A stretch of 64,000 nt of DNA from Candidatus Geocrenenecus dongiae (GTDB taxonomy: Archaea > Thermoproteota > Nitrososphaeria_A > Caldarchaeales > Wolframiiraptoraceae): NCBI GenBank assembly GCA_023267855.1, contig JALNLN010000002.1, positions 11,094 through 75,093 on the forward strand, in the 5' to 3' direction. How positions within the stretch are numbered: the stretch's first letter is position 1; each line of letters opens with the position of its first letter. The notes beneath the pieces are model-generated. The model was given only the letters and a program-made list of their open reading frames with translations, did not search any database and was not told the DNA's origin. Shown here piece after piece: positions 2,021 to 63,402 of this stretch. The translations under genes and the position numbers were made by a program.

Positions 2021-2803
2021 TTACACCTCAATAATATCCATGTCTTTAGGTATTATTACCCTACGTATAGGTTCTTTTGAGAAGAGTTCTTCAAGTTCTT
2101 TCTCTCTACTCTCCCAAGCAGGATAAAGATGGGTTACGATTAAAATCTTAGGTTTAGCTTTACGTACTACCCTCAATAAGTCTTTTTCAGAAGAATGTTT
2201 TCCTAGAATCATTTCAGATGGGAAGGAGCATTCATGTATAAGTACATCTACGTCTTCCGCCAGCTTAACAATATTCTCATCGTAAACAGTATCTCCAGAA
2301 TAAGCTATACTGTAACCATCAAACTCGACTCTATAAGCTAAACCATTAAAATGTTCTACAGGCAACGCATATACTTTCAATCTCCTAGAATCGTATGCTA
2401 ATCCACCACCCACCTCATATAGATTAACGTAGACATCATAACGCATCATCTGAGAAAGATAACTATAAACACCTCTATCTGAAACCATGTTCTCTAGAAA
2501 ATCTCTTAAACCTACTGGTCCTATCAATTCTAGTTGTGGCGGGCTGGGGTTTGCACCACCAACCTCATTAAATAACCTAATCTTCAATAGTGCCGGAAGA
2601 TCTAATACATGATCTAGATGGAAATGTGTTATAAGCAGTACACCTATAGTATTTGGATCTATCTTCAATTTCCTCAATTTCTCTATAGTTCCAGGCCCGA
2701 CATCCATTAACACTCTGAGATCATCGTTTTCTAAGAGAATTGAAGAAGAAAACCTAGAGCTAGTTGGGATAATGGAACCGGATCCGAGTATTATTATCTT
2801 CAA
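2021..2803 (-). CDS. metallo-beta-lactamase fold hydrolase (RNase Z/BN-like)
   Basis: HFHLDH (HxHxDH) zinc motif after an N-terminal MKIIILGSGS strand, 260 aa. It lies 6 nt downstream of the crenactin-operon ORF on the same strand. Confidence 0.8.
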   Translation of the reverse strand: MKIIILGSGSIIPTSSRFSSSILLENDDLRVLMDVGPGTIEKLRKLKIDPNTIGVLLITHFHLDHVLDLPALLKIRLFNEVGGANPSPPQLELIGPVGLRDFLENMVSDRGVYSYLSQMMRYDVYVNLYEVGGGLAYDSRRLKVYALPVEHFNGLAYRVEFDGYSIAYSGDTVYDENIVKLAEDVDVLIHECSFPSEMILGKHSSEKDLLRVVRKAKPKILIVTHLYPAWESREKELEELFSKEPIRRVIIPKDMDIIEV

Positions 2804-2809
2804 TTTTCT

Positions 2810-3499
2810 CTACTCTCTCTTTGATAGTATTTCAACCCATGGATTATCTAAGAGGAATGATGGTAGCTTTTGTGGAGCATTTGTAGAAGTACTTGGTTTA
2901 ACGTATTGCTCTCTAGCAATTTCTACATTTTCTCTCTTCACGTATTCTAATACTTCTTCTAGTTTAGAAATTCTAGTTATGAGGCTTCTGTGTTCTTGTT
3001 CAATTCTATCTAGCCTAGCTTCAAACTCTTCCAGTATCTTCATCACTTTTGATATCTCTGAACGTAGATATATTAGCTCATTAATTTGCATTGGGTTGAG
3101 TACTTTAATTTCTTCTGTATTGTTGTTCTTTATTTTTTTCTCGTTGAATCTTGGTGGGACTATTTCTTCAGCTCCCATAGTGTCGTATATCACTAGACCT
3201 ATTCCATGTTTTGCTAAAACGTTTTCATCGATCATTCTAACGAATTTTCTGGGTACTGCGAGAACCACGCCATCAAACTTCTCAACTAGTTTCATCAGTT
3301 CTATTAACGCATCTTGTATGCGTGCTTTAGAGGTGCATGAATCTTCACTGAGTATGTTTAGTATCAGTTCCCTTCTACCGTCTGAGAGTATTATCTGTTT
3401 ATCTACGCTTACAGAATTCTCAGTACTGTGGACTTCATAGAACCCTTCATCTAGATATATTGCGGAGACTATTTCTCTTAGGCTTGGTTTCCTAGGCAT
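2810..3499 (-). CDS. hypothetical coiled-coil protein, downstream partner of crenactin (arcadin-2 position)
   Basis: 229 aa, start overlapping the crenactin stop by 8 nt (3492-3499). It has an N-terminal globular part, a heptad-like stretch (LRSEISKVMKILEEFEARLDRIEQEHRSLITRISKLEEVLEYVKRE) and a conserved-looking C-terminal peptide (LPSFLLDNPWVEILSKRE). Confidence 0.6.
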   Translation of the reverse strand: MPRKPSLREIVSAIYLDEGFYEVHSTENSVSVDKQIILSDGRRELILNILSEDSCTSKARIQDALIELMKLVEKFDGVVLAVPRKFVRMIDENVLAKHGIGLVIYDTMGAEEIVPPRFNEKKIKNNNTEEIKVLNPMQINELIYLRSEISKVMKILEEFEARLDRIEQEHRSLITRISKLEEVLEYVKRENVEIAREQYVKPSTSTNAPQKLPSFLLDNPWVEILSKRE

Positions 3500-4763
3500 A
3501 GTTTACCCACCCCTCCATCTTCTCCCATCTCCACTTAAAGTCGTATGGTACAGCATATCCATAGACGATGCATCCTCTCCAGACTGAGTAGGTGGGGTCT
3601 CTAGTAACAGTAACCTTAACATTCTCCACACCTTTCTCTTTCATCATCAATTCTAGTTTACGGTCAGAAGTTACAGCTATACCTTCCAGAGTTGGTGAAG
3701 TTCTCCAATTAAAGTTTCCACCGGAGAGTATTATTTTAGAGTATAGGTGGGGTTGAAGTTCTACAGAACACTTTTCTACAGACTCTATTATCGATTCTGC
3801 TAAATCCGTCATACCGTAGAAATATGTATCACCAATCTTTACATCGCTAGGTCTCGGCATCCCCCTCTTAAAATAACTATTAAAGATCTCGTGATTTGGG
3901 TTGAATACGTATTCTCCTATGAGGAACCTAGTCCAGCTTTGTTCACCTAGATCAATCTTTATCCTGGTTCCAGGAATCTTAACCTCAACTCTAACTTTAT
4001 CGATATTCTTTTTAGCGTACTCTATAGCTTCATCTAATTTTCTAGGTAGGAGACCTATCTGTTCTTTAACTTTTCTAACTAATCCTTCTTCTTTGGCTAG
4101 ATCTCCGTATCCACAGTCTTTCAATATTTCTGCTGTTAAGATGTTTGCTGAACTTCCACCTCTATTAAGTGCTATGACAGCATTTCTTATCGGGTACATA
4201 GAGATTGGGCAGACTTGGGTATTTCCATGTCCACTTTCAACAACAACACACGTAGGAGTTTTATGAGCGATGGCTACAGCCAGAGGTTGAGGAATAATAG
4301 TTGCAGCTCTAACAAGCATTCTCTCTATATTAAGTTCTCCGAAAATTTTGAATAATTCTTCATACATGTATCTAGGAGCTATAACAGCTAAGCTTGCAAC
4401 AACATAGAATCCCTTGAATTCTTCATCGCTTGGTGCGAAGCTTTCTAAAGCATACTTAGTTAGTTCTCTTATTATAAGCCAAGCTTTCCTATCATTCTTC
4501 TCTATGATACCATTCCTCATCGGGTATATCAATCTCTCAGCTAGGTCTTCTCTTGCTTCTAAGTAGAGTGGTAAATCCTTACCTACAACTATCTCTCTAC
4601 CTACACCCATGATCTTCGCCATAAGAGAATTGCCATCAATCAAGTAGCCTCTATTCTCTACTACTTCAGGTACCTCTCCTATCGATATCGGACCATACTT
4701 GAAATCACTTGTCCCATAATCTATGCCGAAGACATTCATCTTCTTGTATTCTTCACTCAACAT
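3492..4763 (-). CDS. cren-1: crenactin (archaeal actin homologue)
   Basis: 423 aa with actin-fold nucleotide motifs GIDYGTSDFKYGP, VVVESGHGNTQV and ILSGGNF. Long stretches match my recollection of Pyrobaculum crenactin: IIPQPLAVAIA, ALNRGGSSANILTAEILKD.GY, WTRFLIGEYVFNPNHE, YSVWRGCIVYGYA. Confidence 0.85.
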   Translation of the reverse strand: MLSEEYKKMNVFGIDYGTSDFKYGPISIGEVPEVVENRGYLIDGNSLMAKIMGVGREIVVGKDLPLYLEAREDLAERLIYPMRNGIIEKNDRKAWLIIRELTKYALESFAPSDEEFKGFYVVASLAVIAPRYMYEELFKIFGELNIERMLVRAATIIPQPLAVAIAHKTPTCVVVESGHGNTQVCPISMYPIRNAVIALNRGGSSANILTAEILKDCGYGDLAKEEGLVRKVKEQIGLLPRKLDEAIEYAKKNIDKVRVEVKIPGTRIKIDLGEQSWTRFLIGEYVFNPNHEIFNSYFKRGMPRPSDVKIGDTYFYGMTDLAESIIESVEKCSVELQPHLYSKIILSGGNFNWRTSPTLEGIAVTSDRKLELMMKEKGVENVKVTVTRDPTYSVWRGCIVYGYAVPYDFKWRWEKMEGWVNYA

Positions 4764-5250
4764 CTATCACCTCTTTGATTATCTCTGAATGGAGTTTTGA
4801 TGCTGATTTGACTCTATCTCTAGATAGACGATAAGAAATGTTGAGCAAGTTTACATTAGTTTTTTTCTCTATCAATACCTCTAGTCCATGTATCTTCTTC
4901 CTAACTTTCTCCATATCCGTAACCGAGAATTTCTCTGAAATCTTCTCAGCAAATGATCCACGTAAATGATAGTAAACATCCACATACCAGCAACATCTAA
5001 ACAATGCTTCAACCAATTCTCTAAAGATCTTTAATATTTTATCCATTCTACCCATATCTAACGTAAGTATGATTTCTTTTCTATCATTACTCTCTGCGAA
5101 ACACTTTACCTCTACGTCATCTTTCCTCGAATACATTCCCTCCGTAATCCAACCACACTCATTCAAGGTAGAAGCTATCTTCCTCCAGCCACCTTCTTCT
5201 CCATAGAATCTACATACTAAGGTTAAGCTACAGCTTCTTACATTACTCAA
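4753..5250 (-). CDS. hypothetical protein, upstream partner of crenactin (arcadin-1 position)
   Basis: 165-aa ORF with a TTG start at 5250 (next in-frame ATG is at residue 39). Its stop overlaps the crenactin start by 11 nt. I recognise no family. Confidence 0.5.
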   Translation of the reverse strand: MSNVRSCSLTLVCRFYGEEGGWRKIASTLNECGWITEGMYSRKDDVEVKCFAESNDRKEIILTLDMGRMDKILKIFRELVEALFRCCWYVDVYYHLRGSFAEKISEKFSVTDMEKVRKKIHGLEVLIEKKTNVNLLNISYRLSRDRVKSASKLHSEIIKEVIDVE

Positions 5251-5359
5251 CCCAATCCAATTGTTAGCATACCTTAACTACAATATATTTATTTGAGAGT
5301 TATCCGAAAATGGAAAAAATTAATTATCATGAAAGACTAGGATTCAGGGTGTTCTATCT

Positions 5360-5716
5360 ATGAAGATATGGAGGAGAAATTCTTGGGTGAGGATAAAAGA
5401 AAATGTTTCTGCATCTCCACTTAGCTTTGGAGATGAGTGTTTAATGATGCTGTTTAAGATAGAAGCCGGGGGAAAAGTTGAAGTACATCAACATCCACAA
5501 GCACAGTATGGTGTAGTAATTAAAGGGAGAGGAGTCTTCATAGTAGGAGGGAGATATATAGAAATATCAGAAGGAGATTCGTATTACATTCCACCTGGAG
5601 AGGAACATGGGTTCTCTGCCCTAGAAGACACTCAAGTTATAGATATATTCATACCCCCTAGAGAAGATTATATGAAGTATGTTAGGAGGGCTGATGAAGA
5701 CTTTTCTAGAAAGTAG
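5360..5716 (+). CDS. cupin domain protein
   Basis: 118 aa with cupin motifs G.KVEVHQHPQAQYGVVIKG and YYIPPGEEHGF. Confidence 0.75.
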   Translation: MKIWRRNSWVRIKENVSASPLSFGDECLMMLFKIEAGGKVEVHQHPQAQYGVVIKGRGVFIVGGRYIEISEGDSYYIPPGEEHGFSALEDTQVIDIFIPPREDYMKYVRRADEDFSRK

Positions 5717-17974: not shown

Positions 17975-20278
17975 TTAATCTTTACTCTTCTTCTTACTTG
18001 TTTGTTTACTCTTAGTTTCTTTTTCTTTCTTTTCTCTGACTTCCTTACTGATCTCTCCGAGTAACTTTTCCACGTCTTCACCACTTGATTCTAGTTTCTT
18101 GACTACGTCTTCAAGTGTAACTTTTGGTGCTTTTCTAATAGCTTCTATAATTTCTTCCTGAGCTTCTGGTTCCAGGATCTCTGTGATAGGCGGTCTAGGT
18201 ATAGGCAGTCTCCTAGACCTTCTACTAGCTCTTACTATGAGAAAAGTTGTTGTAGAGAGTGTTATCGCAATCCCTATTGTTAATGCTTGCAAGCTCATTT
18301 GAGATAATGGTATGGTAACGTATCTTATTCCACCTCTCATTAAATCGAGATTACCAGTTTCATGAAACCATAAATGTGAAATTTCTATAGTTATGTTTGA
18401 AGGTGGGAGTGGGCCTATAGGCGGGCTTCTTCCTTCATCATCTGTCTTTGCAGAATATTTTATCTTTCCGTCAGCTGTCTTTATAGTTATTTCTGCATCT
18501 TTAACTGGTAGACCTAGATAGTCTGATACTATAAACGTTATCTTGAAGAGAGTTGTTGAAATCTGTATTTTACGTAGGTTTTCATCTTCCTTTACTTCAA
18601 ATTCATCCATGTTGAGTACATTGTAACCTTCCCATTCAGATTTCAAGACTTTCCAAACACCTGTCCTGAGCCAAACCTCTGAACCTGAATTAACTTCTTC
18701 AACTTTTTCATACTGATTCTTTATTGTGAATACTACATTTTTCACGGGTTCATATTCTAGTGAAACTGCTTCAAGTAATATCTTCTTCTCTAAATAGTAA
18801 TTGGCCTTTACCAGGACTGGTGAGTTGATGTTTGTGAGAGTACAGTGATTTCTCTCTACTATACTGCATCCACTCCAAGAAGAGAATACTAGTCTAGTAT
18901 AATTATCTATTAGAATTATTGTTGGAGCATCTAGATCTAAGCTTTCTCCCTCTCTAATCCATACCTCTTTCTCTAGACCAGAATTCTCTGGAGCATCGAT
19001 CTTAACTTTATACTCTCTAATCCATGTAGCTTTTAAGATTAAGGGTTTATCAAGATTTTTTACACTTATTGTAGAGTTTGCTGTAACATAGCTTCCAACC
19101 CATTCTGTAAAGATTGCTCTTACATCATCTCTTATAATTCTCGCAGTTGGGTTTGCATCGATGTATATGGATTCTCCTTTCTCCACCCATTCACTTTTAG
19201 AGATCTTAATATCGTATTCAGATGAAATTGAAACATAGTAGAATACCTTCCATAAGGCATGTATTTTTAGAGGTTTCTCGACGAGTAAATCTATTCTTGG
19301 ATTATTATTTGATATATCCCCACTCCATCCATTGAAGACTATCTTTGTATAGTTGTTGAAGATCTCTTCAGGTTGTTTTAATTCATATTGTATCTTCTCA
19401 CCATGCTTTATCCAGCCATCATATAGTTTAGGAGATATATATTGAGATTCTATGAGAACATGGTGATACTTATTCCAGCTTGCTACTATCGTCATTGTTT
19501 TGTTAATTTTAATTTTTATGGTATCTGCTAAGATTGTTTTATCTACACTTCCTTTAGGCGGATAGTCTATCTGGAAATTCTCGAGAACTATTTTTGTTTC
19601 ACCATCATTTAGAATTATCGGGTTCACTTGGGGTTTTAGTTCTAATTCATCTTCTTCAAAATACCATCCACTCTTAACTGATAGAGGATGATCTGAAATT
19701 ACCTCAACGTAGTACTGGGTTTTCCAGAAAACTCTAGCATTTATAGGTCTCAAGACTTCAGCGATACTTATACTTGGGTTACTTGATTCTATGTCTCCAG
19801 CCCAGTGGGAGAAGACTCTCCTCACCCCTTCTTCTATATTTATGATCTCGGGAACAGTGTATGTGAATCTACTTCTTCTATAAACCCATTCACGTAATTC
19901 TTGATAACCTAAATCCAGCTCTACTAAATACTGTGCTCTATAAAATGCAGTATATTCTTGACTAGTATTTCCAGCAATAACTCTGAGCTCGTGAGAAGAA
20001 GACATATATCTACTCCCATTATACCATCCAGTAAATACTACTCTAGTATTATTACCGAACTCCATTATCGGGTACTGGATACTACAACTCGTTTCTTCTC
20101 CAGGTGCGACTACATTTCTACATAGGAGTCTCTTATCTCCAAGCTCTGTATACATATAGAATGTTAAAGTAACTTTGTTTCCTTCTTCTTGTCCTAGAAC
20201 TATCAAGAATGGAGAGATAGCCATCACTACTAGTAGTGTTATCATTACTATGTGGATCTTTGGTGAAGAGTGCAGCAT
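17975..20278 (-). CDS. large type-I membrane / surface protein with about five tandem InlB-B-repeat-like modules and a CarboxypepD_reg-like domain
   Basis: N-terminal signal/TM (ITLLVVMAISPFLIVLG). The module signature recurs as F.GW.G: VVFTGWYNGS, RVFSHWAGDIESSNPSISI, IVFNGWSGDISNNNPRIDL, AIFTEWVGSYVTANSTISV, LVFSSWSGCSIVE. Each is preceded by W..(E/H)GE. Many N-x-S/T sequons, a C-terminal TM (IGIAITLSTTTFLIV) and a K/E-rich cytoplasmic tail. Confidence 0.7.
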   Translation of the reverse strand: MLHSSPKIHIVMITLLVVMAISPFLIVLGQEEGNKVTLTFYMYTELGDKRLLCRNVVAPGEETSCSIQYPIMEFGNNTRVVFTGWYNGSRYMSSSHELRVIAGNTSQEYTAFYRAQYLVELDLGYQELREWVYRRSRFTYTVPEIINIEEGVRRVFSHWAGDIESSNPSISIAEVLRPINARVFWKTQYYVEVISDHPLSVKSGWYFEEDELELKPQVNPIILNDGETKIVLENFQIDYPPKGSVDKTILADTIKIKINKTMTIVASWNKYHHVLIESQYISPKLYDGWIKHGEKIQYELKQPEEIFNNYTKIVFNGWSGDISNNNPRIDLLVEKPLKIHALWKVFYYVSISSEYDIKISKSEWVEKGESIYIDANPTARIIRDDVRAIFTEWVGSYVTANSTISVKNLDKPLILKATWIREYKVKIDAPENSGLEKEVWIREGESLDLDAPTIILIDNYTRLVFSSWSGCSIVERNHCTLTNINSPVLVKANYYLEKKILLEAVSLEYEPVKNVVFTIKNQYEKVEEVNSGSEVWLRTGVWKVLKSEWEGYNVLNMDEFEVKEDENLRKIQISTTLFKITFIVSDYLGLPVKDAEITIKTADGKIKYSAKTDDEGRSPPIGPLPPSNITIEISHLWFHETGNLDLMRGGIRYVTIPLSQMSLQALTIGIAITLSTTTFLIVRASRRSRRLPIPRPPITEILEPEAQEEIIEAIRKAPKVTLEDVVKKLESSGEDVEKLLGEISKEVREKKEKETKSKQTSKKKSKD

Positions 20279-24860: not shown

Positions 24861-26732
24861 ATGAAATTAGGTGGATATGCAGGTAAGATACTTATTATCG
24901 ACCTCAATAAAGAGAAGATCCTTACACAGAGCTTGAATATGGTTTATGCAAAAGCCTATATAGGGGGTAAGGGTTTAGGCGCTAGATATATGCTAGACTA
25001 CATAGATCCTAAGGTTGATCCACTAAGTCCAGATAATTTGTTCATGATATTTAGTTGTCCAGCAAATGGAACGATAGCTCCAGCTTCTGGTAAATATCCA
25101 GTAATCACTAAGTCACCATTAACAGGAATATGGCTTGACTCCCACTCAGGTGGACCCATAGGTGCTGAATTAAAATACGCTGGCTTTGATGGTGTTATTA
25201 TTACTGGGAGAGCAAAAGAACCTTCCTACATATATATAGATGATCAATATGTTGATATAAGGAAAGCGAAAAATCTTTGGGGTAAGAAGATAAGTGAAAC
25301 TAGAAAAACTATTAAAGAAGAGCTTGGAGACCCACTAGTTAAAGTAATGTGTATTGGTCCTTCAGGAGAAAAGCTAGTGAGATTCGCAAATGTAGATTCA
25401 GAAGGTAGACAGCATGGTAGAGGTGGTGCGGGAGCGGTATTAGGCTCTAAGAATATTAAAGCTGTTGCTGTTAGAGGTACTGGATCGGTAGAAGTAGCCT
25501 ATCCAGAAGAATTCATAAAAGCTTGTGAAGAAATGAGTAGAATGGATATCTTTGAGAATCCTGAAGCTCAGTTTGGAATTAAGTGGGGCTCAATAGCCTT
25601 GATGTGGCCGATTCAAGAAGTTGGCGCTCTTCCAACCAGAAACTATACAGATGGAAGATTTGAACACGTATCCAGCATAGACGCTAATGTAGTTTTAAAA
25701 CACTCGATAAAGAGGGGAGCATGCTTCTCTTGTCCTATAGGTTGCCACAACTACGTTTTAATAGATTATGGACCCTGGGCGGGAACATTAGTTGAGGGAC
25801 CTGAATATGAGACAGCTGACTTAATCGGAGCTAATACAGGCACATCTAGATTCGATGCAATTGCCAAAGCAAACGAGTTGTGTGATGAGTATGGCTTAGA
25901 TACAATAACAACGGGATCGGTTGTAGCATGGAGCATGGAGTTGTTTGAGAGAGGGCTACTTACACTCGAAGATACAGGAGGTTTAGAACTTAAATTTGGT
26001 AATGCAGAAGCATTAGTCTCGTTAATAGAGAAGATTGCGAATAGAGAGGGGATAGGAGATATACTGGCTGAGGGAACGAGAATTGCAAGCCAAAAGATTG
26101 GAAAGAATAGTGAGAGATACGCTGTACATGTTAAAGGATTAGAGCTTCCAGCTTACGAACCTAGAGCTTCTCCAGCGATGGGTTTATCTTACGCAGTGGC
26201 AGATCGAGGAGGATGCCATTTGAGGTCATGGCCTATTGGCCCAGAATGCTTAAACGCTTACTGGCTTGGCGCTAAGCCGATCAAGCTAGACCGGTGGAGC
26301 CCCGAGAATAAAGCTATTGTAGTTGTACAACAAGAACATCAATATGCAGCTAAATTCGCTTTAGGAGTATGCGATTTCTGCTGCTGGGATAATCAAAGAT
26401 TAACGAATATTCTGTGGACTGTGACAGGTTTTGATGAATATAGAGATGTTAGAAACTTCGAGTTAGCTGGAGAAAGAATAATCAATTTAATACGAACTAT
26501 CAATGTTAGATTTGGGATCTCATCGAAAGATGATAAACTTCCACCTAGAATACATAATGATCCGCTTAAGACAGGTCCAGCCGCTAATAGAGTATTGAGA
26601 GAAGAAGATTTTGAATTCATGAAGAAAGATTACTACAATATTAGGGGATGGGACGCCGAGGGAAGACCGACTGTAGAGAAACTGAAAGAGCTTGGAATGG
26701 ATGATGTATTAAGATACGTGAATTGGAGGTGA
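24861..26732 (+). CDS. aor: tungsten-containing aldehyde:ferredoxin oxidoreductase family enzyme
   Basis: 623 aa with AOR_N-type start (MKLGGYAGKILIIDLNKEKI), pterin/cluster motifs (GRGGAGAVLGSKNIKA, CFSCPIGC, EYE) and a C-terminal AOR domain. Confidence 0.9.
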   Translation: MKLGGYAGKILIIDLNKEKILTQSLNMVYAKAYIGGKGLGARYMLDYIDPKVDPLSPDNLFMIFSCPANGTIAPASGKYPVITKSPLTGIWLDSHSGGPIGAELKYAGFDGVIITGRAKEPSYIYIDDQYVDIRKAKNLWGKKISETRKTIKEELGDPLVKVMCIGPSGEKLVRFANVDSEGRQHGRGGAGAVLGSKNIKAVAVRGTGSVEVAYPEEFIKACEEMSRMDIFENPEAQFGIKWGSIALMWPIQEVGALPTRNYTDGRFEHVSSIDANVVLKHSIKRGACFSCPIGCHNYVLIDYGPWAGTLVEGPEYETADLIGANTGTSRFDAIAKANELCDEYGLDTITTGSVVAWSMELFERGLLTLEDTGGLELKFGNAEALVSLIEKIANREGIGDILAEGTRIASQKIGKNSERYAVHVKGLELPAYEPRASPAMGLSYAVADRGGCHLRSWPIGPECLNAYWLGAKPIKLDRWSPENKAIVVVQQEHQYAAKFALGVCDFCCWDNQRLTNILWTVTGFDEYRDVRNFELAGERIINLIRTINVRFGISSKDDKLPPRIHNDPLKTGPAANRVLREEDFEFMKKDYYNIRGWDAEGRPTVEKLKELGMDDVLRYVNWR

Positions 26733-26736
26733 GATC

Positions 26737-27252
26737 GTGAGTTCAGTATTCATGCCTGAAAAGATACTAGTAATAGACCTGGATAAATGCACTGGATGTG
26801 AGCGATGCATTTTAGCATGTAATTTTAAGAAATCTGGAAAATTCGGTAGAACAGATAGTAGAATAAGAGTATTCAGCTGGAAGGAGACAGGAGATTTCAT
26901 TCCGACGACATGCCTCCACTGCAATCCTGCACCATGTCAGGAATCATGCGGTGTAGGTGCAATACATAGAGATGGAAAGACAGGCGCCGTATACATAGAT
27001 TACAAAACATGTATAAATTGCAAAGCATGTATGTATGCATGTCCTTATGGTGCAATAAGCATTGACACACAAGGAAGAGTAGTTAAGTGTGATCTATGTG
27101 AAGGACAACCAGCGTGCGTAGAAGCATGTTCATTCAATGCTCTAAGATTCGAGAAACCAGTTAAAGCTGTTGATAAATTAGTTGTTGAATACGTAAAATC
27201 TCTAAAAGCGGCGGGTGTCAGTAAAGGACCTTCAGCACCTATTAGACCATAA
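26737..27252 (+). CDS. polyferredoxin-like 4x[4Fe-4S] electron-transfer subunit
   Basis: Four Cys clusters: CTGCERCILAC, CLHCNPAPCQESC, CINCKACMYACP, CDLCEGQPACVEAC. GTG start 4 nt after the aor stop. Confidence 0.85.
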   Translation: MSSVFMPEKILVIDLDKCTGCERCILACNFKKSGKFGRTDSRIRVFSWKETGDFIPTTCLHCNPAPCQESCGVGAIHRDGKTGAVYIDYKTCINCKACMYACPYGAISIDTQGRVVKCDLCEGQPACVEACSFNALRFEKPVKAVDKLVVEYVKSLKAAGVSKGPSAPIRP

Positions 27253-59775: not shown

Positions 59776-62700
59776 ATGGTTGTTAGAGCGGTTTACGAAG
59801 GTTTTTGTTCAAATTGTGGAGGGTCTATCGAAGATTATAGACTAGTCTCCATAGGTGTTTGTAAAAACTGTTTACCATCAGTCCCAGCCAATTTAACCTC
59901 TGGAGAAGTGGCCAAACACCTCAAATCTCTTAAAAAATATAAAGACTATAGGGTTATAGCTGAATTAGAAGAAAAACTTGAAGTTTTCAGGAGAGAATTT
60001 GTTAAAGCCACAGGTTTCCAACCATGGTCTTTACAAGAAGTTTGGGCTAAATGTGTATTACTAGATGAGAACTTTACTATCGTTGCTCCAACTGGTGTGG
60101 GAAAGACCCTTTTCTGTATAGTGATGGCCTTATTTTTAGTTAAACATTTTGGTCGGAGATGCTATCTGATACTGCCTAGCTCTATGCTTGTGGAGCAAGT
60201 TACAGATAAAGCGTTGGATATAGCTGAGAAGATAGGTTTAACTCCAGACCTCATAGCGTATTATCATGCCGGGCTACCTAGACTTAAAAGAGAAGAAACG
60301 TTGAAGAAGATAAAGTCAGGAGAATATAAGCTACTTATAACTACAGACAGATTTCTCGTAGACAGAATGGAAGCTCTACATGGAACAATATTTGATAATA
60401 TTTTTGTCGATGATGTTGATTCATTTCTCAAATCTCCTAAGAATATAGATAAGGTAATCTCTCTTCTAGGCTTCAATCCATCTATACTGGACACTGTCTT
60501 CAGGATAATTGAGATAAGAAAGAGGCTCATGACGCAGAGTAGTGTAGATCTTTGGAGGGAGTATGAAGAATTGAGAAAAATTATTGAGAAGGAGAAAGAG
60601 AAGAAGCATGGTAGACTCGTAGTTACAGGTGCAACTCTAAAAACCAAGAAATCTAAAAGAATATACGTATTCTCAGAATTACTTGGATTCGAACTTGGAA
60701 CAAAACCAGAATTCATTAGAAACATAGTAGACATCTATATCAAAGTAGATGGAAATCTTGAAGAGAAAGCGATAGAGTTGATTAAGAAGTATGGTAAAGG
60801 TGGTTTAGTTTTTGTACCTCTAGCATTTGGTAAAGAGTATGCAAAAAAGCTTGCAGAGAGGCTTAAAGAAGCAGGTATAAAACCATACTTTTATGAAAAG
60901 ATGGAAGAAAACATTCTAGATAAATTTGAATCTGGAGAATACGATGTGCTGGTTGGAATAGCTACTAGCCGAAGCCCTCTAGCGAGAGGAATAGATCTAC
61001 CAAGAACTATTAGATACGCTATCTTCGTAGGTGTTCCCCGTAGAGAGATAAAACTTAGAAAAGATGAATTGAACCCAAATAAGATACATGCATTACTTAC
61101 AAACATACTGGATGTCTTCGACGAGAAAGATAAGCTTGAAGCTATGAAGCTATTACAAAAACTTGGGAAGATAGTGCCTGTACCTAAAGAGATAGTTACA
61201 CAGTTAGAAGAAGCTTTTGAGAAAGGTGTGAAACTAGATGGGTACGCAGGATACATACAACATGTAGTAGAGCAATCTAGAAAAATTCTAGAGAAGATAT
61301 TCACAAAAGAAATCCTAGAGAAAATCGCTAGAGAAACAGATGTAATGGTGAATCTTGTTGACAATAGGCTTTCTCTAATAATTCCAGATACTTCTGGATA
61401 TATACAAGCATCTGGAAGAACGTCTAGATTATTCGCTCAAGGGATTTCTAGAGGTGTAAGCATAGTTCTTGTAGATGATCTTAAAACATTCACAGGGCTA
61501 ACTAGAAGACTTAGAATAGTATTAGATGAATTCGACTGGGTAGAGTACAATACAGATGAAGTTGAAAAAGTGTTCAGAGAAGTAGATAGAGATAGAGAAC
61601 TTATAAAAGAGATAGCATTAGGAAAGATAACACCTCAGATTAAAGATTTAATGAAGGCGGCTCTCATGATCGTAGAATCTCCTACCAAAGCAAAAACTTT
61701 TGCAAGATTCTTTGGAAAACCATATAAAAGAACATTTAACAACATACCTGTCTATGAGACAAGTACAAGCAATCTCGTTTTGAATATAGTTGCAACGATG
61801 GGACATGTTACTGATCTCTCAATAACTCAGGGAATACATGGTGTTCTAGAAGAAGAAGGTAAATACATACCTGTCTTCACATCTATAAAGAGATGCAATA
61901 AATGTGGGTATAGTTTCGTGGAGAGTGATGAGTGTCCTTCATGCGGATCTAAAGATATTTCATCTAAAAAAGAGGTAATAGATGCTTTGAGAAGACTAGC
62001 TCTAGAAGTTAATGAAGTTTACATTGCTACAGATCCAGATGCAGAGGGCGAGAAGATAGCATACGATATCTATGTAGCGATCTCTCCATACAACAAAAAT
62101 ATCTACCGTCTAGAATTCCATGAAGTAACTAGGAAAGCTCTCCTGAATGCTTTAGCAAATAAGAAGCCTATCTCCATACCTCTAGTAGAAGCCCAGCTCG
62201 TTAGGAGGATTGAAGACCGATGGCTTGGATTTGAGTTGAGTAGGAAACTCTGGGATAGATTTGGATATAGAACTTTGTCTGCAGGCCGTGTCCAGACACC
62301 TGTCCTAGGCTGGGTGATAGAAAGACACATAGAGCATAAGAAGAAGAAAGATCTACTATACGTATTATTAGAAAACGGTCTAGAAGTGATTTACGAGAAT
62401 CCTCAGAATCTAGAAGAGATACTTGAAAGATTTAAGGAAAACATTTTGAGGGCAGAGATAAGTAACTTGATAGAAGAAGTTAGAGATGTTAATCCTCCTC
62501 CTCCATACACAACCGACTCGCTCCTAAAAGATGCTTTCACACAACTAGGCTTACCAGTTGTTCAAACGATGGCGTTAGCTCAAGAACTCTTCGAAAGTGG
62601 TTTAATAACGTATCATAGAACAGATTCAACAACAGTCTCCACAGCTGGAATAAACCTAGCTAAAGAATATATTGAATCAAATAAGCTCGGCGCACTCATA

Positions 62701-63402
62701 CCTAGAACATATTTTAAGGAGGGCGCCCATGAATGTATTAGACCTGTTAAACCACTTGATTCCCAGAAGCTCTCCCAGTACATCAGGATAGGTTTGATAA
62801 AACCAACAGTAAAACTTACAGATAAGCATCTCAGATTATACGACCTAATATTCAGAAGATTTATTGCGAGTCAGATGCAGTCCGCCAAGATCGTTGTTCA
62901 AAGATATACTGTAACATTAGATTCTCTAAAAGTTGAAGTAGAGAAGAATGTAGAAATACTAGAGCAGGGCTTCAACATCATCTTCCCAACCATAAGAACT
63001 GGGAAAAGAGTATCAGAAGGAACATACCTTGTAAAGAACGTAGAAGTTAGGAAGATTCCTTCCGTACCACTTTATAGTGAAGGTGACATAATAGCATTAA
63101 TGAAGGAGAGAGGCATAGGGAGACCCAGCACCTACAGTAGGATAGTTCAGATACTTTTTGAAAGGGGTTACGTCTTCGAGAAGAGAGGAAAACTAATCCC
63201 AACTTCTAGAGGAGTATCGGTCTACAGATATCTTAAAGAGAATTTTGGAGAATATGTTTCAGAAGAAGTTACCAGACAACTGGAAGAAGTCATGGATAAG
63301 ATAGAAGCTGGAGAGATTAATTACCAAGAAGTCTTAAGAGAACTTAAGAAACAAGTTGAAGCTATACGTGCGGTCAAGGTCGTCGTTGATCAATCTAGAT
63401 AA
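59776..63402 (+). CDS. rgy: reverse gyrase
   Basis: 1208 aa with an N-terminal zinc finger (CSNCGG...CKNC), helicase-like motifs (APTGVGKT, DDVD, SGRTSR), then topoisomerase IA Toprim (VESPTKAKT, DPDAEGE) and the active-site region (TYHRTDS). Confidence 0.97.
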   Translation: MVVRAVYEGFCSNCGGSIEDYRLVSIGVCKNCLPSVPANLTSGEVAKHLKSLKKYKDYRVIAELEEKLEVFRREFVKATGFQPWSLQEVWAKCVLLDENFTIVAPTGVGKTLFCIVMALFLVKHFGRRCYLILPSSMLVEQVTDKALDIAEKIGLTPDLIAYYHAGLPRLKREETLKKIKSGEYKLLITTDRFLVDRMEALHGTIFDNIFVDDVDSFLKSPKNIDKVISLLGFNPSILDTVFRIIEIRKRLMTQSSVDLWREYEELRKIIEKEKEKKHGRLVVTGATLKTKKSKRIYVFSELLGFELGTKPEFIRNIVDIYIKVDGNLEEKAIELIKKYGKGGLVFVPLAFGKEYAKKLAERLKEAGIKPYFYEKMEENILDKFESGEYDVLVGIATSRSPLARGIDLPRTIRYAIFVGVPRREIKLRKDELNPNKIHALLTNILDVFDEKDKLEAMKLLQKLGKIVPVPKEIVTQLEEAFEKGVKLDGYAGYIQHVVEQSRKILEKIFTKEILEKIARETDVMVNLVDNRLSLIIPDTSGYIQASGRTSRLFAQGISRGVSIVLVDDLKTFTGLTRRLRIVLDEFDWVEYNTDEVEKVFREVDRDRELIKEIALGKITPQIKDLMKAALMIVESPTKAKTFARFFGKPYKRTFNNIPVYETSTSNLVLNIVATMGHVTDLSITQGIHGVLEEEGKYIPVFTSIKRCNKCGYSFVESDECPSCGSKDISSKKEVIDALRRLALEVNEVYIATDPDAEGEKIAYDIYVAISPYNKNIYRLEFHEVTRKALLNALANKKPISIPLVEAQLVRRIEDRWLGFELSRKLWDRFGYRTLSAGRVQTPVLGWVIERHIEHKKKKDLLYVLLENGLEVIYENPQNLEEILERFKENILRAEISNLIEEVRDVNPPPPYTTDSLLKDAFTQLGLPVVQTMALAQELFESGLITYHRTDSTTVSTAGINLAKEYIESNKLGALIPRTYFKEGAHECIRPVKPLDSQKLSQYIRIGLIKPTVKLTDKHLRLYDLIFRRFIASQMQSAKIVVQRYTVTLDSLKVEVEKNVEILEQGFNIIFPTIRTGKRVSEGTYLVKNVEVRKIPSVPLYSEGDIIALMKERGIGRPSTYSRIVQILFERGYVFEKRGKLIPTSRGVSVYRYLKENFGEYVSEEVTRQLEEVMDKIEAGEINYQEVLRELKKQVEAIRAVKVVVDQSR

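Follow-up and report, generated by a model that had tools for sequence, protein, structure and literature searches.

A window of 64,000 nucleotides (nt) from Candidatus Geocrenenecus dongiae (contig JALNLN010000002.1, positions 11,094 to 75,093; the whole stretch of DNA analyzed is called the window below) carries three overlapping genes on its minus strand. These genes probably constitute an arcade-type actin cytoskeleton module, which consists of crenactin, a groove-binding arcadin-2, and an unrelated upstream protein serving as an accessory factor or adaptor. The crenactin and arcadin-2 of the window are new members of known families, and the presence of crenactin and arcadins in Aigarchaeota has already been published. 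The upstream gene encodes a protein of 165 amino acids (aa), which, as judged from sequence comparisons, is a member of a family separate from arcadin-1. The locus is valuable mostly as a pointer to this candidate family of crenactin partners.

Gene Arrangement and Junctions

The three open reading frames (ORFs) follow each other in the order upstream partner gene (5250–4753, 165 aa, TTG start), crenactin (4763–3492, 423 aa), and arcadin-2 homologue (3499–2810, 229 aa), all on the minus strand. The original prediction, made from the letters of the sequence, described overlaps of 11 and 8 nt in an AT-rich genome; both overlaps were found, and the G+C content along the window is 34–40%. At the first junction (4753–4775, minus strand), a Shine–Dalgarno (SD)-like element, GAGGTGAT, is followed by the overlapping stop and start codons (ATGTTGAGTGA). 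The overlap at this place is 11 nt, or 8 nt if crenactin begins at the TTG codon at position 4760; the shorter variant may be the correct one because the crenactins of relatives start at the equivalent of this second codon. At the second junction (3492–3515, minus strand), the SD-like element GGAGGGGTGG precedes the overlap of 8 nt (ATGCCTAG). Both elements sit within the 3′ end of the preceding ORF.

A GGTG SD-like element located 7–10 nt ahead of the crenactin start is kept in all 11 Geocrenenecus and Wolframiiraptor relatives inspected. The overlapping stop and start codons are also kept in 11 relatives, where the first junction is mostly 4 nt long (ATGA, TTGA, or GTGA) and the second is 8–11 nt long. 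Independent public annotations of this sequence (GCA_038887795.1, GCA_038868835.1, and a Logan assembly) contain the same three genes with equal lengths. Taken together, the conserved overlaps, the SD elements, and the matching annotations indicate that this arrangement is not a chance pattern of ORFs. The conserved junctions with their SD elements are consistent with translational coupling. It was also supposed that the three proteins are made stoichiometrically; the overlaps are real and conserved, but equal stoichiometry does not follow from overlap. In Pyrobaculum, arcadin-2 and crenactin form a 1:1 complex with a dissociation constant of 31 nM, so a strict 1:1 output would tie up all crenactin if the arcadin-2 of the window behaves alike (PMC5173319).

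The spacer between the gene of the 165-aa protein and the divergent cupin gene is 109 nt long. It holds a putative promoter (5251–5300, minus strand) with the TATA-like sequence AAATAAATATATT, read by eye, approximately 38 nt before the TTG start.

Crenactin

Among prokaryotic proteins, crenactin is one of the nearest relatives of eukaryotic actin, surpassed in this respect only by the Asgard actins. The middle ORF of the window encodes an archaeal actin-family ATPase, and its assignment to crenactin in the original prediction is confirmed by several searches. A search of Protein Data Bank (PDB) sequences revealed the crenactin structures of Pyrobaculum calidifontis (4cj7, 4bql, 5ly3, and 5mw1) with an E value of 6.8e-111 and 374 bits over residues 2–419, whereas eukaryotic actins gave an E value of about 4e-10 and actins did not exceed 42 bits. 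Hsp70, MreB, ParM, and sugar kinases, which were named beforehand as possible competitors, were not the best matches. The NCBIfam crenactin model NF053560 scored 566.2 bits over model positions 1–421 of 422, and the rival NCBIfam models scored far lower (MamK 48 bits, syringactin 26 bits, and BeeR 17.5 bits). The E value for the Pfam Actin model was 2.6e-15. Homologues with 80–81% identity to the window crenactin carry the name “crenactin” in JGI annotations.

The level of identity of the window crenactin to the Pyrobaculum protein is 44%. The nucleotide motifs of the actin fold (DYGTS, ESGHGNTQ, and LSGGNF; phosphate-binding and adenosine motifs), as well as Q159 and the V334–E335 pair, are all invariant in an alignment of 13 sequences. 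The catalytic glutamine Q159 corresponds to Q164 of P. calidifontis crenactin, and V334–E335 corresponds to V339/E340, a pair whose mutation stops the polymerization of Pyrobaculum crenactin. The long hydrophobic-plug insert can be aligned with residues 292–326 of the P. calidifontis protein without gaps.

The nearest crenactins belong to other Candidatus Geocrenenecus genomes (79–81% identity), followed by those of Ca. Wolframiiraptor (71–76%); these are metagenome-assembled genomes (MAGs) of hot-spring Aigarchaeota/Caldarchaeales. The narrow distribution previously attributed to crenactin does not hold, as a relative is encoded in 231 species-representative genomes. These relatives span Caldarchaeales, Bathyarchaeia, Brockarchaeota, Culexarchaeia, Methanomethylicia, and other Thermoproteota.

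Arcadin-2 Homologue

To our knowledge, arcadin-2 is the only crenactin regulator with a known mechanism, and this mechanism is known in Pyrobaculum alone. Both flanking ORFs of the window were initially left unassigned; this description still applies to the upstream ORF, which has no recognized match, whereas the downstream ORF turned out to be a member of the arcadin-2 family. The arcade cluster of P. calidifontis used for comparison was taken from a metagenome contig (L081), whose best-matching segment shows 100% identity with the crenactin query; over the full ORF, about two residues differ. This contig contains arcadin-1 (113 aa), crenactin, arcadin-2 (203 aa), and arcadin-4 (795 aa, SMC_N-positive). 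An arcadin-2 profile was seeded with the P. calidifontis protein and refined in iterations over the ORFs of the window and of 101 retrieved loci. It converged on 96 proteins at E ≤ 1e-10, all of them crenactin-adjacent, and gave no off-target matches. The 229-aa ORF of the window matches the final profile with an E value of 4e-66 and is placed by the profile search together with P0209, a protein named arcadin-2 by NCBI. A direct BLASTP comparison with P. calidifontis arcadin-2 gave an E value of 4e-4 and 25% identity over 159 aa, with the C-termini aligned end to end. In 96 of the 99 loci whose gene neighbors were clustered by BLAST, an arcadin-2 homologue likewise stood beside crenactin in the same orientation.

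All 96 homologues terminate in the motif LPS[FY]xx[DE]N[PE]W[VLI]x[IV]L, after which come basic residues, and the crystallized Pyrobaculum peptide is included in this rule. The C-terminal peptide of the window protein, LPSFLLDNPWVEILSKRE (codons 2813–2866, minus strand), was found as predicted; it aligns with residues 187–203 of P. calidifontis arcadin-2, RGGIGENEWVKILRSKR. In the motif alignment, DNPWVEILSKRE of the window protein stands opposite ENEWVKILRSKR, and residues N219, W221, and L225 do not vary within the family. The RGGIGENEWVKILRSKR peptide has been crystallized in the hydrophobic groove of crenactin (PDB 5LY3) and alone suffices to depolymerize filaments (PMC5173319). Its nanomolar affinity for the groove has been credited largely to the tryptophan (Izore et al. 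2016, PMC5173319).

The AlphaFold2 (AF2) model of the window arcadin-2, constructed with a 31-sequence alignment, has a predicted local distance difference test score (pLDDT) of 82. It comprises an alpha/beta domain (residues 1–118), a long helix (136–199), a disordered linker (200–213, pLDDT < 50), and a terminal helix (214–227). This model, together with the homologous groove peptide, agrees with the layout of a globular domain, a coiled coil, and a C-terminal peptide that was originally proposed for this ORF. A Foldseek search with the N-terminal domain revealed restriction-endonuclease-like (PD-(D/E)XK-type) folds, namely XisH, PaqCI, AF2093, BamHI, and FokI. XisH and PaqCI were the best matches, and the template modeling (TM) score for XisH was 0.51–0.53 on the target. 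The family alignment contains no invariant acidic or lysine residue in this domain, which is therefore probably a non-catalytic module of binding or dimerization. We found no mention of a nuclease-like fold of the arcadin-2 core in the arcadin-2 literature examined.

Two variations of the surroundings of arcadin-2 can be noted. In 19 crenactin loci (L021, 7897–8208, and 18 others), a conserved ORF of about 95 aa stands right after arcadin-2 and on its strand. The window has no copy of this ORF, which could be arcadin-3-like or another partner gene. In twelve loci (L035, L038, L042, L046, L049, L050, L059, L060, L064, L067, L068, and L078), the order is inverted, so that arcadin-2 lies immediately upstream of crenactin, and the family of the 165-aa protein is undetected. 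All twelve belong to Caldarchaeum, Terraquivivens, Pelearchaeum, and related MAGs.

Protein Family Encoded Upstream of Crenactin

The original prediction stated that the upstream ORF matched nothing known. Searches of Pfam, NCBIfam, and PDB sequences, both with the single protein and with a 40-sequence profile, bear this out, giving no significant match. The best database matches (uS3m with an E value of 0.02; PPR designs and KIX with 0.13) were judged to be due to chance. Homologues were detected by tblastn in Geocrenenecus and Wolframiiraptor only, while an iterated hidden Markov model (HMM) found members of the family in 45 of 80 crenactin genome loci. All 45 are located directly upstream of crenactin on the same strand, and none was found elsewhere in these loci. 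Their hosts are Wolframiiraptoraceae, Brockarchaeota, Bathyarchaeia, Culexarchaeia (Culexmicrobium), and several Thermoproteota and Nitrososphaerota MAGs. When the neighbors of crenactin were clustered by BLAST in 99 loci, this family, present in 43 of them, was surpassed only by arcadin-2, present in 96.

Among 1.84 billion cluster representatives searched exhaustively with HMMER, only 24 belong to the family at E ≤ 1e-3. They are 76–256 aa in length, except for one borderline match of 1501 aa (E value 9e-4). A word-indexed protein search with the 40-sequence profile returned 11 proteins, among which the homologues encoded on the genome contigs of Geocrenenecus and Wolframiiraptor were missing. 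Public annotations may leave out many of these small genes or call them differently. The family appears to be undescribed: there is no Pfam or NCBIfam model, all the names in the sources are “hypothetical protein”, and the literature searches revealed nothing.

The AF2 model of the 165-aa protein (11 sequences) has a pLDDT of 77.8 and a predicted TM score of 0.75. The predicted fold is a two-layer alpha/beta sandwich in which the order b-a-b-b-b-a occurs twice. This repetition prompted a check for internal duplication, which was rejected, as the hhalign comparison of the two halves gave a probability of 0.8%.

C-Terminal Appendages of the Upstream Family

The members of the family differ in their C-termini. 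Two types of appendages were found, namely a basic tail in most members and a separate domain in a few. The tail is a short basic amphipathic terminal helix, which follows a variable linker and has a net charge of +3 to +7 (for example, SLLKKLLRWAR, RVFEEFKRILRFKGK, and YGILGKIAKLIKG). The mean hydrophobic moment for the family is 0.66, compared with 0.51 ± 0.16 for other C-termini in the same loci. The upstream family could accordingly be a membrane tether of crenactin filaments, comparable to FtsA or to amphipathic helices of the MinD type, and the window copy would then be a tail-less derivative. We regard this explanation as unlikely. The excess of the hydrophobic moment is modest, and the helix could instead bind a protein, for example, in the crenactin groove. 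Additionally, the Gly–Trp codons of the tail partly coincide with the crenactin SD element; their conservation may partly be maintained at the nucleotide level, and this overlap weakens the membrane-helix reading. The copies of the window and of Geocrenenecus have no such tail.

The second appendage is a C-terminal extension of about 55 residues. It is present in three database representatives and in four loci, of which three belong to Bathyarchaeia (L024, 5279–6007; L025, 181–951; and L028, 5282–6007) and one to Culexmicrobium (L034, 5310–6008). The extension profile matches the ribbon-helix-helix (RHH) protein ORF56 of plasmid pRN1 with an E value of 4.4e-5 and a CopG-family RHH protein with 0.054. 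The E value for the NCBIfam ORF56 model is 2.7e-4, and that for Pfam RHH_1 is 0.0023, slightly short of the threshold.

In the ParMRC system of plasmid partition, ParM forms an actin-like filament, and ParR is an RHH adaptor whose C-terminal peptide occupies the ParM groove. The RHH-bearing proteins bring to mind a chromosomal machine of DNA segregation of this kind, in which the upstream family would be a ParR-like adaptor between the crenactin filament and DNA. The DNA-enzyme-like fold predicted for the N-terminal domain of arcadin-2 points in the same direction, and a passage in the literature cites Pyrobaculum arcadin-2 as located between segregated nucleoids. However, the window protein has no RHH domain, most members of the family have the basic amphipathic tail rather than the RHH domain, and the RHH domain could equally be an autorepressor of the operon. 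No convincing centromere-like or operator repeats or iterons were found at 5230–5380 of the window or upstream in the RHH-bearing loci. A ParMRC-like machine seems somewhat less likely than the already unlikely membrane tether. As for the arcade-type module with an upstream accessory protein, a constant core combined with exchangeable targeting modules suggests an adaptor whose core touches the crenactin system.

Relation to Arcadin-1

The 165-aa ORF fills the slot of arcadin-1, being immediately upstream of crenactin on the same strand, and the original prediction implied that an equivalent of arcadin-1 might be encoded there. The ORF could accordingly be read as a highly diverged arcadin-1, a positional orthologue, and the locus as the arcadin-1/crenactin/arcadin-2 core reported for Caldarchaeales. 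The position, strand, and gene order are indeed the same as in P. calidifontis, and Caldarchaeales have been reported to encode arcadin-1 (10.1101/2022.04.06.487207), but position alone is no proof of homology.

The sequence comparisons do not bear this reading out. The Pfam model Arcadin_1 (PF18653) gave no match at E ≤ 1 to the window ORF or to 40 members of the upstream family, while the Pyrobaculum arcadin-1 control gave 1.7e-42, and the arcadin-1 HMM found nothing in the window. A comparison of the upstream-family and arcadin-1 profiles by hhalign gave a probability of 0.2%, and the upstream-family profile had no match at E ≤ 10 in the PDB, in which the arcadin-1 structure is included. 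Arcadin-1 was also not among the best 50 of the 1484 PDB matches found by Foldseek for the 165-aa model, where it should be considered that the arcadin-1 crystal structure lacks residues 32–71. The sizes disagree as well (165–200 aa versus 113 aa). Arcadin-1 and arcadin-4 were each found in 18 of the 99 crenactin loci, nearly all of which belong to Pyrobaculum. In two Thermoprotei MAGs, a true arcadin-1 homologue is located elsewhere, on the strand opposite to crenactin and about 3 kb upstream of it (L076, 2474–2833; L080, 918–1256, minus strand); thus, arcadin-1 is not always crenactin-adjacent. Taking all this into account, we consider a diverged arcadin-1 very improbable.

Least credible of all is the supposition that the 165-aa ORF has no functional connection with crenactin, or is no real gene, and adjoins it only through local synteny. 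The whole neighborhood (EF-2, cupin, metallo-beta-lactamase (MBL)-fold hydrolase, and dCTP deaminase) is syntenic in Wolframiiraptoraceae, so that linkage there proves little. Outside this group, however, all the other synteny is lost, and Brockarchaeota, Bathyarchaeia, Culexarchaeia, and other MAGs still encode a family member just ahead of crenactin; all 45 profile hits, inside and outside the group, have this position. The AF2 fold is confident, the SD element and the overlap are conserved, and the identical protein is present on contigs in 49 blocks of a public assembly collection.

Proposed Role of the Module

The arcade-type module, which we prefer as the explanation of the locus, would operate as follows. 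The three genes would be transcribed together and translated via the overlapping stop/start junctions, and the crenactin would polymerize into ATP-dependent filaments. The C-terminal helix of arcadin-2 (DNPWVEIL) most likely enters the hydrophobic groove of crenactin and competes there with the D-loop of the next subunit, and the occupancy of the groove would lead to monomer sequestration or filament depolymerization. The coiled coil and the apparently degenerate nuclease-like N-terminal domain may dimerize arcadin-2 and tie it to another partner. The 165-aa protein most likely binds crenactin via its conserved alpha/beta core, as an accessory factor or adaptor. In other lineages, the basic tail or the RHH domain on the same core suggests a link of the filament to the membrane or DNA, while the window copy is tail-less.

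Several observations weigh against this explanation. The crenactin score of 566 bits falls short of the equivalog cut-off of NF053560, which is 630. Similarly, the NCBIfam model Rkd2 (NF053561) gives the window arcadin-2 26.1 bits (E value 5.9e-6), far from the equivalog cut-off of 290; the other non-Thermoproteales arcadin-2 homologues tested show 25–33 bits or no match, and the P. calidifontis protein shows 300 bits. Both cut-offs appear to be tuned to Thermoproteales. The upstream family evolves fast, with 24–39% identity of the window protein to its Geocrenenecus and Wolframiiraptor homologues where crenactin has 71–81%. It is missing from the loci of the Pyrobaculum lineage and Caldarchaeaceae (about 30 of the 99) and is therefore not essential to crenactin function. 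Among the best 50 of the 1484 Foldseek matches, the TM scores of the 165-aa model are 0.22–0.48 at a root-mean-square deviation above 7 Å. The generic alpha/beta matches (ACT tandem, TBP, AdoMetDC, and GcvT) are too weak for assignment to a fold family, and, as it has no close structural analogue, the fold says nothing about function. The argument for an adaptor is drawn from relatives, since the window protein itself lacks both the RHH domain and the basic tail and ends in an acidic helix; the Geocrenenecus relatives likewise lack both.

The groove peptide of arcadin-2 is essentially invariant over Aigarchaeota, Bathyarchaeia, Brockarchaeota, Culexarchaeia, and Thermoproteales, which argues that monomer sequestration is ancient and general in the crenactin system. 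Beside crenactin, more than half of the genomes examined encode an unannotated second partner, which is distinct from arcadin-1. Its small size, its predicted fold, and the thermostability that comes with its origin make it a concrete candidate for the biochemistry of anchoring or regulation of archaeal actin filaments. A bolder and rather doubtful extension can be formulated, according to which the upstream family would represent prokaryotic adaptors of actin filaments of a new class. Their core would bind crenactin, and exchangeable C-terminal modules would couple the filaments to cargo, the basic amphipathic helix to the membrane and the RHH domain to DNA. Together with crenactin and arcadin-2, it would represent an ancestral three-part machine of non-Thermoproteales TACK archaea, and arcadin-1 would be a later replacement in Thermoproteales.

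Genomic Environment

The gene next to arcadin-2 encodes the MBL-fold hydrolase (2021–2803, minus strand), as was noted in the original prediction. It has partial RNase Z-like similarity (134 bits, with a cut-off of 293). Its TTG start is located 6 nt past the arcadin-2 stop, this tight spacing is retained in loci L001–L020, and the gene is followed by that of dCTP deaminase. The MBL-fold gene may be co-transcribed with the crenactin genes. The MBL-fold gene and the dCTP deaminase gene were rejected as parts of the module, as their linkage is limited to Wolframiiraptoraceae, where the whole region, including the EF-2 and cupin genes, is syntenic. The statement that no SMC-like arcadin-4 gene follows downstream is correct, and no large Walker-A coiled-coil ORF (SMC/Rad50-like, arcadin-4 type) was found anywhere in the 64-kb window, while the P. 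calidifontis control was SMC_N-positive. Arcadin-3 was not seen at the crenactin locus of the window. No FtsZ signature was found within the window, a result that speaks for the window only and not for the whole genome.

Other genes characterize the organism. A reverse gyrase with zf_Rg, DEAD, Toprim, and Topoisom_bac domains is encoded at 59776–63402 (plus strand), and an aldehyde:ferredoxin oxidoreductase of the tungstoenzyme family, followed by a 4Fe-4S dicluster protein, is encoded at 24861–27252 (plus strand). The predicted reverse gyrase marks the organism as a hyperthermophile, and both predicted enzymes fit a hyperthermophilic member of the tungsten-associated Wolframiiraptoraceae. A 767-aa ORF (17975–20278, minus strand) carries a hydrophobic segment at its N-terminus and matches no Pfam model at E ≤ 1e-5.

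Comparison with Known Systems

The closest described system is the arcade cluster of Pyrobaculum calidifontis (Ettema et al. 2011; PMC5173319). In both loci, arcadin-2 is the next gene after crenactin on that strand, and a small gene directly precedes crenactin. The organization of arcadin-2 is also shared: a helix follows the core domain, and an unstructured linker leads to the conserved C-terminal helix with its tryptophan. However, the upstream gene of the window belongs to an unrelated family rather than to Pfam Arcadin_1, arcadin-4 is absent from the 64 kb of the window, and arcadin-3 is not seen in the locus. The genes of the window overlap, whereas those of Pyrobaculum are 7–26 nt apart. 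The levels of identity are 44% for crenactin and about 25% for arcadin-2.

Crenactin and arcadins have already been recorded in Caldarchaeales (Aigarchaeota) and marine Culexarchaeia, and Caldarchaeales genomes have also been reported to contain FtsZ2 and CdvBC (10.1101/2022.04.06.487207). The Caldarchaeales sets belong to the same broad lineage as the window and, like it, have crenactin and arcadin-2 without arcadin-3. In that survey, arcadins were assigned by arCOG (arcadin-1 as arCOG05582), and the family found upstream of crenactin in the window was not described (10.1101/2022.04.06.487207). No arcadin-1 homologue was found in the window, and its gene order differs from that of Caldarchaeum, Terraquivivens, and Pelearchaeum, in which arcadin-2 is upstream of crenactin.

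The locus resembles ParMRC in that an operon of an actin-family filament protein includes a small partner with a C-terminal helix that would bind the groove, and in that some members of the upstream family have an RHH domain. Arcadin-2 and ParR bind the groove in the same orientation (PMC5173319). There is, however, no sequence relationship between the systems; the RHH domain of the upstream family is C-terminal and absent from the window protein, no centromere-like repeats were found, and arcadin-2 depolymerizes filaments in vitro instead of capping or stabilizing them. The same mechanism is seen in the eukaryotic sequesterers of actin monomers thymosin beta-4, WH2, and cofilin, in which a short amphipathic helix occupies the groove between subdomains IA and IIA (PMC5173319). 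These proteins are not homologous to arcadin-2, and convergence has been proposed by Izore et al. (PMC5173319).

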